Positions 1,331 to 50,820 of a DNA stretch of 64,000 nucleotides are shown piece by piece. The notes under the pieces are model-generated. The model was not told the origin of the DNA, searched no databases, and saw only the letters and a list, made by a program, of their open reading frames with translations. Origin of the DNA: a virus. Both the position numbers and the translations under genes were made by a program. The stretch lies in the IMG/VR virus record IMGVR_UViG_3300045988_125866. One strand, written 5' to 3'. Position 1 is the stretch's first letter, and the number at the start of each line of letters is the position of its first letter.

Positions 1331-1385
1331 CTAAAAATGTTAAAATCTTACTTTTCCAAAAAGCCCCGTAAATATACCTAAATAT
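1331..1385. repeat. inverted-repeat element, copy A (partner 4991-5040)
   Basis: Reads ctaaaaatgt..aaaagccccgtaaata..aaatat. The reverse complement of 4991-5040 shares identical blocks of 10, 16 and 6 nt in the same order. Confidence 0.7.
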
Positions 1386-1437
1386 CAAATACGAAACTTA
1401 TCTATGTCTAAACCTTGTTAATGCAAAAAGTGCCAAA

Positions 1438-1469
1438 TTTGGCGATAAAAAACCTATTGCGTACCTTTG
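1438..1469 (+). promoter_or_regulatory. Bacteroidota-type promoter (-33 TTTG / -7 TAnnTTTG)
   Basis: TTTG at 1438-1441 and TACCTTTG at 1462-1469 with a 20-nt spacer. Predicted transcription start is near 1476. Confidence 0.5.
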
Positions 1470-1475
1470 TAGCGC

Positions 1476-1860
1476 TTATCAGAAATCGCTCGCTGATAAA
1501 TTGAATATGCTTTATCTTAGTGGCTTTTGCCACTCCATGATATACCCTATCCAATACTCGGAGAGCGACTGAGTAGAGGATAGGGTAAATTCTTTTATCC
1601 TATTCCTCGAAGTCAAGGTGGAAGAGACGGCTAAATACACCACGCACACCAAGACTTTAAATGCAAGTGGGACTCATGGCAAAAGTGCAGGGTTTAATCG
1701 CAGAAGGCACGAGAAGGGTGGATGCTACAATCCGAAAGCTGCGACGCTGAAGCACGTGTAGTTCGTGTAGAGGTCGAATGAAGGGTCAATATACTGGGTC
1801 CATGCCATTCGAGGAATCCCACGCCTACAAGTTTTTTCTTGTGGGTAAGGGGGATTCTCT
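1476..1860 (+). ncRNA. candidate structured noncoding RNA or long structured leader, class unknown
   Basis: No ORF of 60 aa or more in any frame across 1260-1932. Helices: 1476-1482/1493-1499, 1519-1524/1529-1534, 1543-1552/1578-1587 (inner 1555-1559/1571-1575), a 10-bp long-range pair 1602-1611/1808-1817, and 1814-1820/1851-1857. Confidence 0.35.
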
Positions 1861-1932
1861 CAATCAGCTATCTGCAACCTGTTCCATATTCTTTAAATAA
1901 TGTAAGTATAAATTTAAATAAAATATTATATC

Positions 1933-2652
1933 ATGGATAAAGATAAAGAAAATAATATTATTATACCCACGCGCGAGGAGTTTGAGGACTTCTGCTCACT
2001 GAAGCTTGGGTATAATGACAGAGAGTTTACATCAGAATTGTGGAAAACCTGCCAAAAAGTTGGTTGGAGGAAGAAAAACGGCGACCCTCCGAAGAGCTGG
2101 CAGATACTGGTTATATGCTATAATGGCATCGTGCTTCCAAAATTCGGTCGCAAACCATACAAACGAGCATCTGTATCAGAAAAAAGCGGAGAAGAGGAGT
2201 TCCCGGATAACGGCATGCACTATATCGCCTATACTGATGGTAGCTGTGAAAACAAATCATCCAGAAAGGCAGGTGGATCCGCCTATGTCCTGATTAAGGA
2301 TGAAGAGGTTGTTAGAGTCAAGAATCACGGCCAACTCAACACTACGAACAATCGTATGGAGCTGCTTGCCATAATTTCTGCGGTCAATGCCTGCCCGGAC
2401 GGCGCCTTTGTTGATGTTTATACTGATAGCAAATATAGCATACTGACCCTTGAGAAGACGTACAAGCCGGATATAAATGGTGACCTGTGGGAACTATACC
2501 AAAAGCATTCTCGCCACGTTGCTGGAGTTCGCTTGCATTGGGTTAAAGGCCACAACGGAGATCATTATAACGAGATGGCAGACGAAATGGCGTACGGAGC
2601 GTATTGCGAGATTTGTGACAAATATGGAATAAAGAAAAGTAATAGACACTAA
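1933..2652 (+). CDS. RNase HI-domain protein with unknown ~95-aa N-terminal extension
   Basis: The C-terminal ~145 aa show the RNase HI catalytic pattern YTDGS .. NNRMEL .. YTDS .. HNGDHYNEMADE. No domain recognised in the N-terminus. Confidence 0.8.
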   Translation: MDKDKENNIIIPTREEFEDFCSLKLGYNDREFTSELWKTCQKVGWRKKNGDPPKSWQILVICYNGIVLPKFGRKPYKRASVSEKSGEEEFPDNGMHYIAYTDGSCENKSSRKAGGSAYVLIKDEEVVRVKNHGQLNTTNNRMELLAIISAVNACPDGAFVDVYTDSKYSILTLEKTYKPDINGDLWELYQKHSRHVAGVRLHWVKGHNGDHYNEMADEMAYGAYCEICDKYGIKKSNRH

Positions 2653-2718
2653 TCTTCTATCCTATATTTCTTATTGGTATAGAGGTGTTATATATATTAC
2701 AATAAAAAAATAGACGCA

Positions 2719-2922
2719 ATGAAGAAAATTAAATGGAAAATCGCCGCATTCGTGGCGTGGGTTGTAATAACCCTCATGGTCGTAGATGTCGGGCTCAGGG
2801 GAGTGAGCAAGGCAGACACAACGACGAACATCGTAAGCGTAGCCATCCTCCTGATATGGCTTCTCGTTTCAATCGCAACGGATTGTTTAACATTCAAAAA
2901 TAAAAAAGATGAAAAAGATTAA
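2719..2922 (+). CDS. small two-helix membrane protein
   Basis: 67-aa ORF with two hydrophobic segments. Its 3' end overlaps the start of the SPFH gene by 14 nt. Confidence 0.5.
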   Translation: MKKIKWKIAAFVAWVVITLMVVDVGLRGVSKADTTTNIVSVAILLIWLLVSIATDCLTFKNKKDEKD

Positions 2923-3694
2923 ATTCGTGTTCATGTTGTCGCTGATTCTTTCAGTGTTGTGTTTAACTTCTTGCAGCGAGCGTATCGACGCAGGTTCTGA
3001 GGGTATCCTGGTGAACCTCTACGGCTCTGACAAGGGCGTTGATGACGTTAGTCTCGTTACAGGCCGCGTGTGGTACAATCCTTTCACGGAGGAGGTCTAT
3101 GAGTACCCAACGTTCGTTCAGACCATTGACTACCCTGCATTCACCATCAACGCCAAGGATGGCTCCGAGTTCACTGTGGACCCTACCGTGTCACTGAAGA
3201 TGGTTGACGGCAATGCGCCGAGAGTGTTCAAGAAGTACCGCAAGGAGTTGAAAGACATCGTTAATGGTACTTTGTTCAACTACGTGAAGGACGCCTTCCG
3301 CATTCAGCTCAACAAGTACACAACTGATCAGATTGTCAGCAACAGGGATTTGGTTGAACGTGCCATCGAGGCGCAGCTCAGCAAGGCTCTCGCCAGGGAG
3401 CACTTCCATCTAGAGCAGTTGACATCAGGCTTGAAGTATCCGAGTTCCATCGTGGAGGCCGTTAATCAGAAAAACAAGGCTATCCAGGAGGCACAGAGAG
3501 CACTCAACGAGGTTGCGGTCAAGAAGGCAGAGGCGGAAAAAATGCTCGTACAGGCGCGTGCAGAACGTGAGGCCAACGAACTCAAGACAGCTTCCCTCAC
3601 TCCTGCTATCTTGAAAAAGATGTGGATTGAGAAATGGGATGGCCGTCTCCCTGTTTACGGGAACGTTCCTCAGATGATGATGACAACCAAGTAG
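2909..3694 (+). CDS. SPFH/Band-7 family lipoprotein
   Basis: Lipoprotein signal MKKIKFVFMLSLILSVLCLTSC. Prohibitin/flotillin-like core followed by an Ala/Glu-rich coiled coil (EAQRALNEVAVKKAEAEKMLVQARAEREANE). Confidence 0.75.
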   Translation: MKKIKFVFMLSLILSVLCLTSCSERIDAGSEGILVNLYGSDKGVDDVSLVTGRVWYNPFTEEVYEYPTFVQTIDYPAFTINAKDGSEFTVDPTVSLKMVDGNAPRVFKKYRKELKDIVNGTLFNYVKDAFRIQLNKYTTDQIVSNRDLVERAIEAQLSKALAREHFHLEQLTSGLKYPSSIVEAVNQKNKAIQEAQRALNEVAVKKAEAEKMLVQARAEREANELKTASLTPAILKKMWIEKWDGRLPVYGNVPQMMMTTK

Positions 3695-3702
3695 ATTACA
3701 GC

Positions 3703-3742
3703 ATCCCCACGCCATTTTACGAATGACGTGGGGATTTTCCTT
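3703..3742. terminator. bidirectional terminator between convergent SPFH and int genes
   Basis: Stem ATCCCCACG (3703-3711) / CGTGGGGAT (3727-3735) followed by TTTCCTTTTT. Confidence 0.7.
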
Positions 3743-3743
3743 T

Positions 3744-4907
3744 TTAACCGTTCAGATAGTCGATGACTTTTCTGTTGGCCTCATCCACCTTTCTTGTGTC
3801 ATATTTTATGTACGTCGAAGTTATCGCATTGTCCCAAAGCGAATGACCAAGAGAACGGCCTATAACCTCCATTGGAATATCCATCTCGCTTGCGATCGTT
3901 GCCCAGGTGTGTCTGCTCCAGTAGCTTGTTATATCCTTCTCGACAGGGTGTATTGTGACATAATAGCTGTGTCGCTCCTTTTCTCCTATTGTACGAAGGT
4001 GTCTTGTCATGTTGTTTGCGAAGGTGTTTGTAAGAGTCGTTCCAGCCTCCTCCAGGAAACTGAGAAGATAGTCCTTCTTCCTGCTCTTATGCCGGCTTAT
4101 TATCTCCATTGCCTCAGGCTCAACCTTGATGTCGTACAATTTTCCTGTCTTGTTGCGCTTGTAGCTTATACGGCCATTCTTCAAAGCCGTCTTTGGAAGG
4201 AACAGCAGGTCGCTTATGTTGATACCGATGAGGTAGAAACATAGCATGAAGCAATCTCTGTACATGGCCTTCTTCCCGGTCAGCCTGAAATCCCTTATCG
4301 CACGCAGCTGTTCAAGGGTCAGGCAGCGCTTTTTGGTCTGCTCCTTTCTCAGCGTGATACCACGGAACGGATACTTGTCCGTCAGTTCGTCGTCTATTGC
4401 CTTGTTGAAGGCGAACTTCATAATCTGAATGTCGGTAGATATTCCGTTCACAGCCCTTCCCTTACTCTTCTCGTGGTCGATATAAGAAAGTACCCACTTC
4501 TTGTCAATAGTGTTAAAGTTACAGTTCTTGTCGTAAGCCTCAATCGTTCTCGCCACTCGCTCGTAATTTCTTCTCGTGTTGTACTTACCCTTCGTTTCTG
4601 CAACTTTAAGTATATACCCAACAAACGAACCTTGATCCGTCTTCTTTGCGCCCTTGACGATTTCCGTTACATGACTTTTTAGCTCATCTGCCGTCTCGTC
4701 CTTGTGGTTTAAAATGTAATCCTCCACGTCCGCATAGAGATTCGCAAGCCTTGCGGTCTTCGCCTTTGCGTTTCGGTCCGACTTCGGGAATATCAACCCG
4801 GAAAACTTTTCAGTTGTCTGCAAACCTGTGTAGACATAGAACCTCTTGTACTTAAAGGTTATAGAAAAGAACACCTTTAGATCCCTTTTGTTTACATAAA
4901 TCTTCAT
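3744..4907 (-). CDS. int: tyrosine site-specific integrase
   Basis: 387-aa ORF. The catalytic C-terminus carries SRHTWATIASE .. IGRSLGH .. STYIKY (R/HxxR/Y pattern). The N-terminal SAM-like region is typical of Bacteroidota phage/CTn integrases. Confidence 0.9.
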   Translation of the reverse strand: MKIYVNKRDLKVFFSITFKYKRFYVYTGLQTTEKFSGLIFPKSDRNAKAKTARLANLYADVEDYILNHKDETADELKSHVTEIVKGAKKTDQGSFVGYILKVAETKGKYNTRRNYERVARTIEAYDKNCNFNTIDKKWVLSYIDHEKSKGRAVNGISTDIQIMKFAFNKAIDDELTDKYPFRGITLRKEQTKKRCLTLEQLRAIRDFRLTGKKAMYRDCFMLCFYLIGINISDLLFLPKTALKNGRISYKRNKTGKLYDIKVEPEAMEIISRHKSRKKDYLLSFLEEAGTTLTNTFANNMTRHLRTIGEKERHSYYVTIHPVEKDITSYWSRHTWATIASEMDIPMEVIGRSLGHSLWDNAITSTYIKYDTRKVDEANRKVIDYLNG

Positions 4908-4961
4908 TGCATGATTTCCTTTCGTTATCTAACGCTTCAGTCCAATCAGCCTGTTTGATTT

Positions 4962-5211
4962 TTGTTTGCATATTGTTTGCATTTTATAATATATTTGGGC
5001 GTATTTACGGGGCTTTTCGGGCTGTTTTTTACATTTTTAGCGTATCAGTTTTAATGTTTATACTATTGAAAATCAGTGAGTTAAGTAGCGCTGTCGCCCA
5101 ATACGTTACAGTTATCATTGCTATCTTTGTAACTTACTGATTATTAATTTATTATGAGTTTTTGAAAATATCTTGTTTGCGTATTGTTTGCAATTTTACT
5201 GCTTGTTTGCA
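4962..5211. repeat. iterated TTGTTTGC(A/G) 9-mers (candidate recombinase or repressor binding sites)
   Basis: Direct copies start at 4962, 4973, 5173, 5184 and 5203. The 20-nt blocks 4962-4981 and 5173-5192 are 19/20 identical. Confidence 0.6.
4991..5040. repeat. inverted-repeat element, copy B (partner 1331-1385)
   Basis: Reads atattt..tatttacggggctttt..acatttttag, the reverse complement of copy A. Immediately preceded by a plus-strand TTTG (4965-4968) / TATATTTG (4990-4997) promoter-like pair. Confidence 0.7.
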
Positions 5212-5663
5212 AGCATATCGAGAAGCTGCTTGATCTGAGCATCTTTGCTTGCAAGTTGTTTGCGCATATCTTTAATCTGTTCGTGGAGTATCCCAATCTC
5301 TTTGTCCTTTAAGGACTCGTCGCCTATAAAGAGATTTGATACTTTAGCAAACGCATTGTCCGGAGTACCCAGTGCTCCTTCGATGGATTTTTCGACATGT
5401 CCACCTATATTTATGTCTCTTCCTACACTATATGTATTGTCGGCATAAACATTTCCTTCTCCACTTTTGAGCCATTTTTGATTTACGCCCATATACTTGC
5501 TTATCTTGAATATGTCTTTGTTCGTTATTCCATACTCGCCCTTTAGCTTCTTTCGAAGATTTCCAGGGTCAATATCAACTTTCTTCGAAAAAGAGTTGGC
5601 ATTGTATCCATTCTCTTCCATAAGATGTTTTATTCGACAAATTAACTCTATATCCTTCTTCAT
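5196..5663 (-). CDS. CI-like repressor (XRE-family HTH plus coiled coil)
   Basis: Start moved to MKKDIELI. HTH segment YNANSFSKKVDIDPGNLRKKLKG. C-terminal heptad region. Divergent from the rightward early operon. Confidence 0.65.
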   Translation of the reverse strand: MKKDIELICRIKHLMEENGYNANSFSKKVDIDPGNLRKKLKGEYGITNKDIFKISKYMGVNQKWLKSGEGNVYADNTYSVGRDINIGGHVEKSIEGALGTPDNAFAKVSNLFIGDESLKDKEIGILHEQIKDMRKQLASKDAQIKQLLDMLANKQ

Positions 5664-5668
5664 AATTA

Positions 5669-5768
5669 CAAATATACAACTAAACACACGATTATTGTAA
5701 AATAACCTTAAAAACACACGATTTCACACGAAATTATTTGGTGTTTTCGAGTGAAAGTAGTACCTTTG
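5669..5768. promoter_or_regulatory. divergent lysogeny-switch promoters with repeated operator-like motif
   Basis: A minus-strand TATATTTG box (5669-5676) lies 5 nt before the repressor ATG. CACACGA repeats start at 5685, 5715 and 5725. Plus-strand TTTG (5737-5740) / TACCTTTG (5761-5768) with a 20-nt spacer. Confidence 0.5.
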
Positions 5769-6213: not shown

Positions 6214-7020
6214 ATGAACGAACTAACCAGGAAAGAAACAATGACCTCGTTAGAAATAGCTGAGGCGACAGGAATGCGTCATGCTGACGTAATGAGAAGC
6301 ATTCGAAACATGGAGGAAGCATGGGTGAAAGTATCAGAACGCAATTTTGCGTTGTCATCATACAAGCAACCTCAGCCGAATGGAGGGTACAAAGATGTTC
6401 CTTGTTATATTCTCAGTAAAACCGAATGCCTGTACGTTGCCACAAAGTTCAATGACGAGGCACGAGCAAAGCTTGTGTTGAGGTGGGAAGAGCTTGAATC
6501 GAAAGAGGTGAGCAAGTACCAGGTTCCGCAATCTTTCTCTGAGGCACTCATGTTGGCGGCTAAACAACAGGAGCAAATAGAGAGACAACAGAAACAGCTC
6601 GAAGCGAGTTCAAAGGAAATCGTTGAACTTAACGGTGCGATAGCAGAGATGCAGCCAAAGGTGACATACGTTGATATCATCCTCTCAAGCAAGGAAACAG
6701 TCACAACGACACAGATTGCGCAGGATTATGGTCAGTCTGCAAAGTCATTCAATATCCTGCTTAGGAATTTTGGGCTACAGCGTAAGGTTGGAGGACAGTG
6801 GATATTGTACGCAAAATATCTCCCTTACGGATATGTTCAGTCGGACACTATATCAATAATGCACAAGAATGGTTCTGCCGGTTCGGTTATGCACACAAAA
6901 TGGACACAGAAGGGCCGCTTATTCCTTTACGAGGAATTAAAGAAACACAAAATATTCCCTCTTGTCGAGGGTGGAAAGGAGGCTCAAAATGACACCAAAA
7001 AAGAAGACCGTAATCAATAA
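6214..7020 (+). CDS. Rha-family regulator fused to KilAC antirepressor-type domain
   Basis: The N-terminus TSLEIAEATGMRHADVMRSIRNM is Rha-like. The C-terminus TTTQIAQDYGQSAKSFNILLRNFGLQRKVGGQWILY is KilAC-like. Confidence 0.7.
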   Translation: MNELTRKETMTSLEIAEATGMRHADVMRSIRNMEEAWVKVSERNFALSSYKQPQPNGGYKDVPCYILSKTECLYVATKFNDEARAKLVLRWEELESKEVSKYQVPQSFSEALMLAAKQQEQIERQQKQLEASSKEIVELNGAIAEMQPKVTYVDIILSSKETVTTTQIAQDYGQSAKSFNILLRNFGLQRKVGGQWILYAKYLPYGYVQSDTISIMHKNGSAGSVMHTKWTQKGRLFLYEELKKHKIFPLVEGGKEAQNDTKKEDRNQ

Positions 7021-7195
7021 GGTGGATAAAATATGGCTGTCTGCACAGGAAGCGGCCACCTATATTGGAATGGGCAAGACATACATATCCGATCTACGGA
7101 AGAAAGGTATTCTTCCTCATTGTATGATAGGCAATACAGCGTTTTTCTTGAAAACAGACATAGATAAGATGCTGGAGACGCATAGGGTGTTCTAA
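6989..7195 (+). CDS. excisionase/MerR-type HTH DNA-binding protein
   Basis: Start moved to MTPKKK. WLSAQEAATYIGMGKTYISDLRKKGILP fits the HTH_17/Xis-like pattern. Confidence 0.55.
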   Translation: MTPKKKTVINKVDKIWLSAQEAATYIGMGKTYISDLRKKGILPHCMIGNTAFFLKTDIDKMLETHRVF

Positions 7196-7344: not shown

Positions 7345-7417
7345 GGACACATAGCTCAGTGGATAGAGCATTTCCCTCCTAAGGAAAGGGTCGCAGGTTC
7401 GATCCCTGCTGTGTCCG
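7345..7417 (+). tRNA. tRNA-Arg(CCT): tRNA-Arg (anticodon CCT)
   Basis: Manual cloverleaf: acceptor GGACACA/TGTGTCC, D stem GCTC/GAGC, anticodon stem TTTCC/GGAAA with loop CTCCTAA, T arm GCAGG-TTCGATC-CCTGC. No encoded CCA. Confidence 0.85.
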
Positions 7418-7772
7418 CAATGTTTGCTTCGTTGATTTTTAGGTGCAAAGCTAACGTCCTTTAAGCTTATAAAGTAGGTAGCTCGGGCAACTACAATCTT
7501 ACATCTTTTTAAAAACAATAGCAAACAATAGCTCTTTGGCTTAATGGTTGACAACATAGTATGCGTGGAAAAGAAGTAGCCGGATAGCGCAATGAGCGCC
7601 GTGACCTGGTGAAAGGACGCACGACATACGAAAATCCAGCTAATTTCTGCATTAAGTAGTTTGGCGAACCGCATCGGAAAGAAGAATTGTCGATGTAGGC
7701 ACATACGAAAATAATGCAGTCTGGTGATTATATTATAATGAGTTCACATCACTCATAGTTTATATATTCAAA

Positions 7773-7951: not shown

Positions 7952-7954
7952 ACA

Positions 7955-8027
7955 GCGGAATAGTAGCAGTTGGTAGCTCGTCAGGCTCATATCCTGAAGG
8001 TCGGTGGTTCGAGTCCACCTTCCGCAA
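7955..8027 (+). tRNA. tRNA-Met(CAT): tRNA with CAT anticodon (Met or Ile2), atypical
   Basis: Anticodon arm TCAGG-CTCATAT-CCTGA and T arm GGTGG-TTCGAGT-CCACC. The acceptor GCGGAA/TTCCGC has only 6 clean pairs, and the D stem has a U10:C25 mismatch. Confidence 0.5.
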
Positions 8028-8111
8028 CGAAATTTATTGCACATGTTAATTTTGCTCGTTAATGTCTCCAGGCGTGGCGTTTTTTTAAATGAATATTAGT
8101 TTTAATGGCTC

Positions 8112-19001: not shown

Positions 19002-19934
19002 ATGAGTAAAAAAGTAATCAAATCGTACAAGGCATTCGACAAGAATATGCAATGCCGAGGATTCCAGTACGAAGTTGGAAAAGAGTATGAAATGGACGGA
19101 GAAATCAAGTGTTGTAAACGAGGTTTCCATGCTTGCAAGTCTCCTTTGGAAGTATGGGACCACTACGATATGCTTAGCTCTCGCTTTGCAGAGGTAGAGC
19201 AATCTGGTAAGATTGAGGAAGAAGGAAATTCAACAAAGGTTTGTTCTTCACATATCAAGATTAAGGCTGAGTTGAAGCTGGCAGACATCATTAAGATCGG
19301 TGTCGAGTGGTTGAAAGATATTACCTCACCGTCAAAGGTTAAGACAGATATTGCGAAGAATGATAACGGAGGCGACTCTGCTAAGATTGGCTCATCAGGC
19401 TACTCTGCTAAGATTGGCTCATCAGGCGACTTTGCTAAGATTGGCTCATCAGGCGACTCTGCTAAGATTGGCTCATCAGGCTACTATGCTCAGATTGGCT
19501 CATCAGGCGACTATGCTAAGATTGGCTCATCAGGCGACTCTGCTCAGATTGGCTCATCAGGCGACTCTGCTAAGATTGGCTCATCAGGCGACTATGCTAA
19601 GATTGGCTCATCAGGCTACTATGCTCAGATTGGCTCATCAGGCGACTCTGCTAAGATTGGCTCATCAGGCGACTATGCTCAGATTGGCTCATCAGGCGAC
19701 TCTGCTAAGATTAATAGCACTGGAGAAGATTCTGTTATCATGTGTGCTGGCAATAAATCCAGAGCGAAAGCAAAGGTTGGCTCATGGATAACGCTTGCAG
19801 AATGGGAATGGAATGACGAGAAGAACCATTATGTTCCAGTGTGCGTTAAGACAGAGTACGTTGATGGAAATAATATCAAGGCTGATACTTGGTATCAACT
19901 CAAAAACGGAGAATTCGTTGAAGTAACTAAGTAA
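19002..19934 (+). CDS. repeat protein (nonapeptide GSSGD[SY]A[KQ]I array)
   Basis: 310 aa. The conserved N-terminal module is KAFDKNMQCRGFQYEVGKEYE..CKRGFHAC. The central part is 12 near-identical 9-aa repeats. Confidence 0.6.
   Translation: MSKKVIKSYKAFDKNMQCRGFQYEVGKEYEMDGEIKCCKRGFHACKSPLEVWDHYDMLSSRFAEVEQSGKIEEEGNSTKVCSSHIKIKAELKLADIIKIGVEWLKDITSPSKVKTDIAKNDNGGDSAKIGSSGYSAKIGSSGDFAKIGSSGDSAKIGSSGYYAQIGSSGDYAKIGSSGDSAQIGSSGDSAKIGSSGDYAKIGSSGYYAQIGSSGDSAKIGSSGDYAQIGSSGDSAKINSTGEDSVIMCAGNKSRAKAKVGSWITLAEWEWNDEKNHYVPVCVKTEYVDGNNIKADTWYQLKNGEFVEVTK
19371..19712 (+). repeat. 27-bp tandem repeat, 12 full copies plus a partial one
   Basis: Unit ggcgactctgctaagattggctcatca in strict 27-nt register from 19371. 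Variation is confined to 3-4 positions per unit. Confidence 0.9.
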
Positions 19935-24087: not shown

Positions 24088-24459
24088 ATGGAAAATAAAG
24101 AATTGACTCTTAATGAGTATCAGAAGGCAGCAATGACTACTTGCATGTCTAGTTGTGAGAACTTTAGCTACATGGTCCTTAATCTTATGGGTGAACTTGG
24201 AGAGTTTACTTCAAAGATTGGTAAGCTTATCAGAAAAGGAAAAGCTCACATCGAAAACAACAAGTTAGTGGTTCACGACGATGTTGAGTGTGTAGATTTT
24301 GAGGCAATCCGCGCAGAACTCGGTGACTGTTTTTGGCAGTTAAACGGAATCTGTTCTGTATTAGGATATAACGTAAATTCTATATGCAGGGAAAACTTAA
24401 AAAAACTTGCATCTCGAAAGGATAGAGGCAAGATAGACGGTAATGGTGATTTTAGATAG
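24088..24459 (+). CDS. MazG-like nucleotide pyrophosphohydrolase
   Basis: LTLNEYQKAAMTT .. LMGELGEF .. ELGDCFWQL matches the all-alpha NTP-PPase (MazG) motifs. Confidence 0.6.
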   Translation: MENKELTLNEYQKAAMTTCMSSCENFSYMVLNLMGELGEFTSKIGKLIRKGKAHIENNKLVVHDDVECVDFEAIRAELGDCFWQLNGICSVLGYNVNSICRENLKKLASRKDRGKIDGNGDFR

Positions 24460-50217: not shown

Positions 50218-50820
50218 TTAGCCTCCAATACCAGAAGCTTGAGCCTTAGTAAGCCAAGCAATACTGCGCATGCCTGCACCCTCGATAGAACCGGCGAACT
50301 TGAATGCAACTGGCTTTGAGCCTGTGTCATCCCACTGCAACGTTGCATAGAGGGCAATGTTTGTCACGATCATAAGGTTCTCCTTCTCGTCGTCAACGAT
50401 GACGATAGTACCCTTGATCTTGAACTTCTTAGGCTCAACTGCAACGCCGGTAAAACCGGTAGTAGCATCGAGAGTCGCGTCACCAGTACTCTTCAAGGTA
50501 ACCTTGGTCAACTCTGTGATTGCATCCTCACCGAACATGATTTTCAACAAGTCCTTTGCCTTGGAAGGAACAACGAACTCTACGTTGAAGTCACCGAGTT
50601 CTGCGGTAGTTGCCCAGTCACCGGCAAGGCCGATAACCTTGTAGTGATTGATGGTCGGATCCTCCATGGTTGCCTTAAGAGAATCAACCTCCACAGGAAG
50701 CTCAATCTCTGGTGTGATGTCAACTGAAGCCTTGCTCAAGTCTGTGATAGCCTTTGAGTAGAGCAAAGTCTTAGGACCATTGAAAATGTCCTTCATCTTG
50801 TCAATAGTTGTCATAGCCAT
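50218..50820 (-). CDS. major tail protein
   Basis: 200-aa beta-rich ORF directly upstream of the chaperone pair. The call is by synteny. Confidence 0.55.
   Translation of the reverse strand: MAMTTIDKMKDIFNGPKTLLYSKAITDLSKASVDITPEIELPVEVDSLKATMEDPTINHYKVIGLAGDWATTAELGDFNVEFVVPSKAKDLLKIMFGEDAITELTKVTLKSTGDATLDATTGFTGVAVEPKKFKIKGTIVIVDDEKENLMIVTNIALYATLQWDDTGSKPVAFKFAGSIEGAGMRSIAWLTKAQASGIGG

Follow-up and report, generated by a model that had tools for sequence, protein, structure and literature searches.

Why should the same ~55-bp element stand, in inverted orientation, in front of both the integrase gene and an accessory operon of a temperate phage? The question is raised by a 64,000-nucleotide stretch of viral DNA (IMG/VR record IMGVR_UViG_3300045988_125866; the whole stretch is termed the window below), in which copy A (1331-1385, + strand) and copy B (4991-5040, − strand) of the element bracket two convergent transcription units, one carrying exchangeable cargo genes and the other a tyrosine integrase gene. 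On balance, A and B are most likely dual operator arrays of a recombination directionality factor, one lying in attP and one before the cargo promoter. Very little is known of how excision and accessory-gene expression are controlled in temperate phages of Prevotella and other gut Bacteroidota.

A repeat search within the window returned two pairs of inverted arms, 1356-1385/4991-5020 (30 nt, 87%) and 1331-1345/5026-5040 (15 nt, 93%). Copy A has the layout ctaaaaatgt-N17-aaaagccccgtaaata-N6-aaatat, and copy B, read from 5040 to 4991 on the − strand, contains the same three blocks in the same order with spacers of 13 and 5 nt, a 4-nt difference in the spacers between blocks. Local gapped alignment of the two intergenic regions in this orientation scored 49, compared with 21.9±3.4 for dinucleotide shuffles (0/2000 reached 49), confirming the inverted element of three collinear blocks that an earlier, sequence-only reading had described. 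The 16-mer AAAAGCCCCGTAAATA has just two sites in the 64 kb, 1359(+) and 5002(−), and tolerating up to three mismatches adds no others. Given that an exact inverted 16-mer pair is not rare in itself, with one other in the window (24312/50589), the weight rests on the collinear blocks and, more than anything, on conservation among relatives; it is these, and not the 16-mer pair alone, that bear out the claim of a match beyond chance. That other pair, the only further exact inverted 16-17-mer pair of the window, lies at 24312-24328 / 50589-50605 (CGCAGAACTCGGTGACT).

Each copy consists of a generic A-tract block followed by three boxes. In copy A the block CTAAAAATGT (1331-1340, +) is followed by three roughly phased CC..AAA boxes (1356-1385, +) with the core CCCCGTA at 1364-1370 and TAAATAT at 1379-1385. 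Copy B carries CTAAAAATGT at 5031-5040 (−) and the boxes CCCGAAAA / GCCCCGTAAATA / CGCCCAAATAT at 5022-4991 (−). The starts of the boxes CCCGAAAA / CCCCGTAAA / CCCAAAT are 9-13 bp apart and their mutual similarity is loose. Only two sites of this type exist in the whole window, and an exact 27-mer gave no match among bacterial contigs sampled at one genome per species, indicating that the element is not a widespread host motif. Predicted DNA curvature placed copy B (5020) as the fourth and the left edge of copy A (1324) as the eighth strongest peak in 64 kb; the prediction comes from a wedge model and is used as supporting evidence only. At the RNA level the two copies folded with −0.8 and −0.7 kcal/mol, no better than shuffles, and no hairpin was found in either. 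Two further readings were rejected. A small open reading frame (ORF) kept across both copies is not present by eye, A containing a 14-codon ORF and B an ATG-TAA. A decayed terminator hairpin was suggested by the many unrelated 16-mer matches that are terminators, but the complementary arm is absent in both copies.

The setting of copy B was defined from relatives of the integrase. Among 80 loci found via the integrase (BLAST), many prophage contigs stop matching the window exactly at 5119, and in the window and loci L048, L131, L132 and L134 the sequence runs on past 5119 into a cI-like gene. An empty attB was present in Prevotella sp. B2-R-102 (...aagtt AATGATAACTGTAAC caattt...). Given this loss of homology and the empty attB, the window holds attP with a 15-bp core at 5105-5119 (−; AATGATAACTGTAAC), identical to attB, and is a Prevotella temperate phage in circular attP form. 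The core, which occurs once in the window and is absent from both A and B, spans the start codon and first four codons of the host gene for a 538-aa ABC-F ATPase. The tyrosine integrase gene (3744-4907, −; Phage_int_SAM_5 and Phage_integrase domains; PHROG 1) has int-proximal arm-type repeats ATCAAAC, TGCAAAC and TGCAAAC at 4953-4981 (−), and the other attP arm carries CGCAAAC and TGCAAAC at 5175-5192 (−), with further copies at 5205-5211 and 5247-5264 within the 3' end of the cI-like gene. Because the heptamer changes with integrase family (TGCAAAC, TGCGAAC, TGCAAG(T/C) or TGTGAGTA), these repeats are taken to be the arm-type integrase sites. Between core and copy B lies a near-palindrome CTGATTTTCA (5067-5076, −), kept as CTGAT(T/A)(T/A)TCA(G) in integrase families 1, 2 and 4.

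Read in the direction of int, the order of attP is the stop of the cI-like gene, the 5175-5192 repeats, the core, CTGATTTTCA, copy B, the 4981-4953 repeats and the int ATG at 4907. Copy B, situated between att core and arm repeats, is an internal element of the int-proximal attP arm, a placement missed by the sequence-only reading. Counted by eye, exactly 31 bp separate the start of CCCCGTA from the first arm repeat in each of five integrase families. Integrase families 1-3 have the common target core ATGAT(A/T)AC(A/T)GTAAC, and thus probably the same host gene in similar hosts.

Promoters were scanned with the Bacteroidota TTTG/TAnnTTTG consensus, the sigma-70 scan being inapplicable to Bacteroidota, and only five full-consensus sites were present in total over both strands of the 64 kb. 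One of the five is a candidate outward-facing promoter at 4965-4997 (+; TTTG-N21-TATATTTG), which shares sequence with the arm repeats and with the 'aaatat' end of B and is directed away from int, across the att core. The TAnnTTTG box at this position is absent by eye in L058, L060 and L038, all of which have copy B, and the outward promoter may be an added, lineage-specific function. No consensus promoter was found for int, which appears to be read from the cI-like gene in the attP form or from the host promoter in the prophage.

Integration at the ABC-F start codon (seen from the core and in L141, L140, L127 and L055) separates the host gene from its own promoter. In the prophage the host promoter faces attR, copy B and int, and the cI-like gene (5196-5663, −) is directed across attL into the ABC-F ORF, so that integration may amount to a promoter swap by analogy with phage BV01 at tspO. 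The divergent host neighbour of attB has the look of an RluA-type pseudouridine synthase, judged from its N-terminal sequence. One prophage junction, in L139, is unlike all others (…aatgcttg/ctgtaacg…, 8 nt into the core, with homology from CTGTAAC) and may represent a secondary attachment site or an imprecise event. The contig L140, labelled 'Clostridia bacterium', has a Prevotella attB region nearly identical to that of Prevotella sp. B2-R-102 and is probably mis-binned.

If copy B is a protein-binding site, its sequence should be expected to follow its protein, and a candidate for such a partner is encoded in the early rightward operon. The 68-aa excisionase-like protein (6989-7195, +), a candidate recombination directionality factor, is assigned to Pfam HTH_17 (2.8e-10) and to PHROG 66, annotated 'excisionase and transcriptional regulator'. 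Its Phage_Cox match is weak and sub-threshold (E 0.024), and a sequence search of the PDB gave only TorI at E = 0.85. A single-sequence structural model (predicted local distance difference test score, pLDDT, 74) retrieved RdfS, Pukovnik Xis, Tn916 Xis and BldC at template modelling scores of ~0.6, with E-values that were not significant.

In relatives, three sequence types occupy the position of copy B: CCC[GT]AAAANCCCCG[TA]A (type 1), GGTACAAAAWCGTGCAT (type 2) and three GGTAAT boxes at exactly 10-bp spacing (type 3). Proteins with the recognition helix GMGK[ST][YF]I accompany type 1 in 24/24 loci, with integrases 99, 81-82, 53-54 and 50% identical to that of the window, and proteins with GMSTGY[IV]H, including those of L061, L233 and family 4, accompany type 2 in 8/8 loci, both counts coming from a search anchored on the 68-aa protein. 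A third protein class goes with the GGTAAT boxes (12 loci). Site type therefore matches protein class without exception in 32 loci, or ~45 when the third class is counted. The integrase does not account for this pattern. L038 has an integrase 54% identical to that of the window and TGCAAGT arms, yet its site is type 1; L061 and L233 have integrases 79-86% identical to families 1 and 2, yet their sites are type 2, and the arms of L061 are TGCGAAC. The sequence type of copy B tracks the class of the 68-aa protein and not the integrase.

Other candidate partners were rejected. The repeats by the gene of the cI-like repressor (ACACACGAT, ~5690-5740) are unrelated to A and B in our own reading of the sequence, and the cI families differ among the phages sharing the motif. 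The products of orf178, the 86-aa ORF, Rha/ANT and orf5926 are absent or non-co-varying in the motif lineages. Just downstream of the excisionase-like gene lie tRNA-Arg(CCT) (7345-7418) and tRNA-Met(CAT) (7954-8028).

Copy A lies directly behind an intrinsic terminator (1283-1321, +; a 13-bp stem, then a T-run) that closes the upstream operon of orf178 and the 86-aa ORF, and a terminator is present at the equivalent position in all related lineages. The promoter of the cargo operon follows (1438-1469, +), with TTTG at 1438-1441, N20 and TACCTTTG at 1462-1469, and is another of the five full-consensus sites. The interval from CCCCGTA to the start of the −7 box is 98 bp. The sequence-only reading had placed one copy at the head of each convergent unit, which stands, with the correction that A is upstream of the promoter (−33 at 1438, −7 at 1462) and outside the transcript of its own unit. 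The cargo operon (1470-3694, +) comprises a structured leader or non-coding RNA candidate, RNase H (1933-2652), a 67-aa membrane protein and an SPFH protein (2909-3694); together with the tyrosine integrase, the gene content between the copies is as had been described. A bidirectional terminator proposed at 3703-3742, between the convergent units, is half supported, in that the hairpin is present (3703-3735) and its T-run exists on the + strand only.

The cargo operon is mosaic and exchangeable among relatives. Breakpoints of exchange were located at ~1460-1477, 1613, 2658-2707 and 3766, that is, at the promoter and between genes and not at the repeats, one of them falling immediately downstream of the −7 box. 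Phages with integrases 47-60% identical share the module 1460-2707 at 93-97% identity. The leader RNAs (~1470-1932 in the window, with equivalents in L056, L057, L060 and L021) are long and structured, exist in at least three exchangeable variants, and show a hairpin at the 5' end (GCTTATCAGAAATCGCTCGCTGATAA) as well as a stem at 1540-1590; Rfam searches with gathering and E-value thresholds gave no relevant match for the leader RNAs or for the two copies. The SPFH gene has 66-68% nucleotide identity to prohibitin-like genes of the crAss-like phages IAS virus, cr85_1 and PhiCrAssBcn1-3, and seems to be passed between widely differing groups of gut phages.

That the element recurs in related genomes, a check proposed with the sequence-only reading, could be demonstrated. 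When the core was allowed the degenerate form GAAAANCCCCGTA, an inverted second copy was found ahead of differing cargo in all seven lineages that encode the type 1 protein and have enough flank, namely those of the window, L056, L057, L058/L152, L038/L025, L163 (a further integrase family) and L060, in which it takes the form ctCCCCGTAtctctactTAAATAT. The pattern (G)AAAANCCCCGTA-N8-9-TAAAT is retained though the flanks of copy A are unalignable between lineages. The distance between A and B ranges from 2.9 to 6.9 kb with varying enclosed cargo, and the order of the slot is constant: terminator, copy A, consensus promoter, structured leader and cargo. From CCCCGTA to the −7 box the distance is 97/98, 108 or 119 bp across four intervals of unrelated sequence, corresponding to steps of about one helical turn, and the chance of such a register is roughly 0.02 by our own estimate. 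L061, which has orf178, the leader RNA, RNase H and the integrase type in common with the window and encodes the second protein class, is missing the motif at both positions. Polymorphism within lineages is too low for a clear footprint.

Ahead of copy A, a small unit bounded by a promoter and a terminator encodes a structured RNA of ~130 nt (…cagccctgccgttggtgctcaatggtggggc…) in L058, L057, L038, L056, L060 and L163, and the window has the 86-aa ORF in its place. The family 4 phages L112-L115 and L124 carry a tRNA 3' end in attP; in the same phages a different inverted 15-mer, TCACCA(C/T)TAAAAACA, is present in the post-terminator region and in the att arm, at the position of the CTAAAAATGT block. 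An inverted 12-mer recurrent in integrase family 3 (GCAATAGTAGTA) lies inside a membrane-protein ORF and was dismissed as chance.

From the attP anatomy, the conservation, the co-variation with protein class and the spacing, a mechanism can be proposed in which binding, bending and regulatory effect are predictions. Published directionality factors occupy direct repeats spaced by one helical turn, require ~3 adjacent sites, and bind cooperatively with bending of the DNA; a subset (186 Apl, P2 Cox, TorI and Vis) also regulates promoters via a second set of sites (PMC7498355, PMC3936717). Copy B would be the binding and bending site of the 68-aa winged-helix protein, with ~3 roughly helically phased boxes, at which the protein would help the integrase to assemble an excisive complex at attR. 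Outside att, copy A would offer the same protein a further array. Upon induction, derepression of the early operon would allow the protein to occupy both arrays, promoting excision at B and modulating cargo transcription from a fixed helix face at A. The effect at A is guessed to be repression, that is, shut-off of lysogenic-conversion or defence cargo at induction. The inverted orientation of the pair is then explained, because each array has the same polarity to its downstream unit and the units converge. More tentatively, this arrangement may be a standard 'cargo slot' of a family of Prevotella temperate phages, made up of terminator, excisionase operator, helically phased promoter and swappable leader and cargo, in which the excisionase would signal induction by turning the cargo off (or on) upon excision. 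A single protein might in this way couple excision and cargo control, possibly bridging both arrays into a loop that encloses int and cargo.

For copy B, several features known from arrays of directionality factors are found together: a location between core and arm sites, an excisionase-like gene in the phage and a site that follows the protein. Copy A provides a second array of the same sequence outside att and beside a promoter, as in systems of the Apl/Cox type, but it does not overlap the promoter it would regulate. Several further points weigh against the proposal of dual operator arrays. Copy A is 67-89 bp upstream of the −33 TTTG and does not overlap −33 or −7, so that a simple occlusion mechanism is inapplicable. 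The boxes have an irregular period here (9-13 bp) compared with the clean 10-bp GGTAAT of the third class. The structural matches of the 68-aa protein are without statistical significance and derive from a model of moderate confidence, and the separation of its classes is moderate, with 63-66% identity within and 51-60% between them. Many loci are close kin, so that the counts overstate independence, and about ±6 kb was covered per relative, leaving room for another co-varying protein beyond that span. In the other two protein classes, the respective att-arm motif shows no clear second copy; the duplication is accordingly a trait of one class, and the dual arrangement is not general.

Other explanations were also weighed, some of which dispense with a phage protein. 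Both copies could be curved DNA or architectural sites for host HU/IHF-like proteins, with B bending the attP arm and A acting as an upstream element of the cargo promoter. Phased A-tracts in both copies, the curvature peaks at B and at the edge of A, and the presence of a generic block C(T/A)AAAA in the att arms of all classes agree with this. It is nevertheless rather unlikely, though more plausible for the generic CTAAAAA block, given that the core varies by excisionase-like class though families 1-3 use the same attB core, and that curvature does not require exact conservation of CCCCGTA. Copy A could also be a functionless remnant of a past duplication or of a fusion between modules, or the copies the termini of an inserted cassette. 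The region is indeed highly mosaic, and diversity in the closest lineage is too low to reveal selection. However, the core is kept in seven lineages with flanks beyond alignment, the helical register to the promoter is maintained, and tyrosine-recombinase insertion would leave direct and not inverted repeats. Cassette termini, and with them a precise absence of the block at the repeats, had been raised by the sequence-only reading, and are disfavoured by exchange breakpoints away from the repeats and by phages of other excisionase classes that hold the same block without the repeat. A relic is thus considered a doubtful explanation. Equally doubtful is the view that the end of copy B is, in this lineage, mainly the outward promoter (4965-4997, +) under integrase or excisionase control. 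The promoter is a full match to the consensus, its −33 overlapping the arm repeats and its −7 to ~+20 overlapping the B boxes, but lineages lacking the TAnnTTTG box keep B, and copy A carries the non-consensus TATATTTA. This could be an added function, and the pair would be left unexplained.

Explanations at the level of RNA or of recombination between the copies fare worse. An RNA element heading both units, such as a nut-like antitermination, Rho loading or processing site, would suit the sense orientation of both copies, their C-rich and G-poor composition (by eye) and the host ABC-F promoter that in lysogens reads through B toward int. Copy A, however, is preceded by a terminator and stands ahead of its unit's promoter, hairpins are lacking in both copies and Rfam offers no matching family, making this reading quite improbable; the analogy with lambda nut sites drawn earlier fails on the same position and on the folding energies. 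A shared operator is the best fit among the three alternatives listed with the sequence-only reading; antitermination and processing are disfavoured by position and by the lack of structure. A reading in which the enclosed tyrosine recombinase inverts the 3.6-kb block, as the geometry of inverted repeats around a recombinase gene would invite, can be regarded as extremely improbable. Parental flanks were present at 16/16 A and 18/18 B copies (IMG/VR, 9 A and 9 B; metagenomes, 7 A and 9 B), so that the orientation variants sought yielded 0/34 copies with chimeric flanks, and every related locus was collinear, this evidence coming from assemblies. In addition, the block spacers differ by 4 nt between the copies, copy A is without att core and arm repeats, and the integrase has a defined attP and attB elsewhere.

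Should the 68-aa protein bind both arrays, an operator, an attP architecture and an attB would all have been defined by sequence alone, and excision and cargo regulation would become directly testable in an abundant group of gut prophages. Clear mutational tests would follow from the fixed distances, 31 bp to the arm site and 98, 108 or 119 bp to the promoter. The known roles of directionality factors would also widen if one of them proved to be wired to a lysogenic-conversion operon in place of the lysis-lysogeny switch. Elsewhere in the window, a tandem array with a 27-nt period is present at 19370-19712 (~12 copies, 94-96% identity) inside the ORF 19002-19934.

The arrangement can be set against several known systems. 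In lambda, the Xis sites X1-X1.5-X2 by P2 are three adjacent sites between the core and an arm-type Int site, as proposed for copy B, and the fixed spacing to the arm site (here 31 bp in five integrase families) likewise suggests a cooperative Xis-Int contact. Unlike in lambda, the array here is on the int-proximal arm with int transcribed away from attP, and lambda Xis is not known to have a second array outside att. In KplE1 (TorI/IntS) and P4 (Vis), the att-arm sites of the factor overlap a promoter, comparable to the overlap of the candidate promoter at 4965-4997 with B and the arm repeats; the promoter regulated in KplE1 is that of int, whereas here a consensus int promoter was not found. 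The tyrosine-recombinase invertons of Bacteroidota share the inverted repeats near a tyrosine recombinase, but no orientation variants were found here, the enzyme concerned is a phage integrase that has attP and attB sites of its own, and the repeats are 3-7 kb apart and without core-type sites. The Bacteroides phage BV01 (Salyersviridae) inserts between the tspO promoter and ORF (PMC8354205), and an insertion between host promoter and ORF is similarly seen here at the ABC-F start codon region; the likeness is limited to the attachment-site context and does not extend to the repeat, and host gene and phage differ.

The closest parallels are 186 Apl and P2 Cox, small winged-helix proteins that bind direct-repeat operator arrays ~one helical turn apart, cooperatively and with bending (PMC7498355, PMC3936717), with one array in the att arm and another at a promoter region. 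Here one array lies in the attP arm beside the Int arm sites and a second near a promoter. The likeness is drawn from sequence, and the protein differs in being of HTH_17 type with a Bacteroidota host. The second array here heads an exchangeable cargo operon rather than the lysis-lysogeny switch, and does not overlap the promoter. The proposed arrangement would therefore be of a known kind, that of a dual-site directionality factor, and what is new, to our knowledge, would be, in Prevotella phages, a second array placed ahead of exchangeable cargo genes and helically phased with the promoter of their operon.

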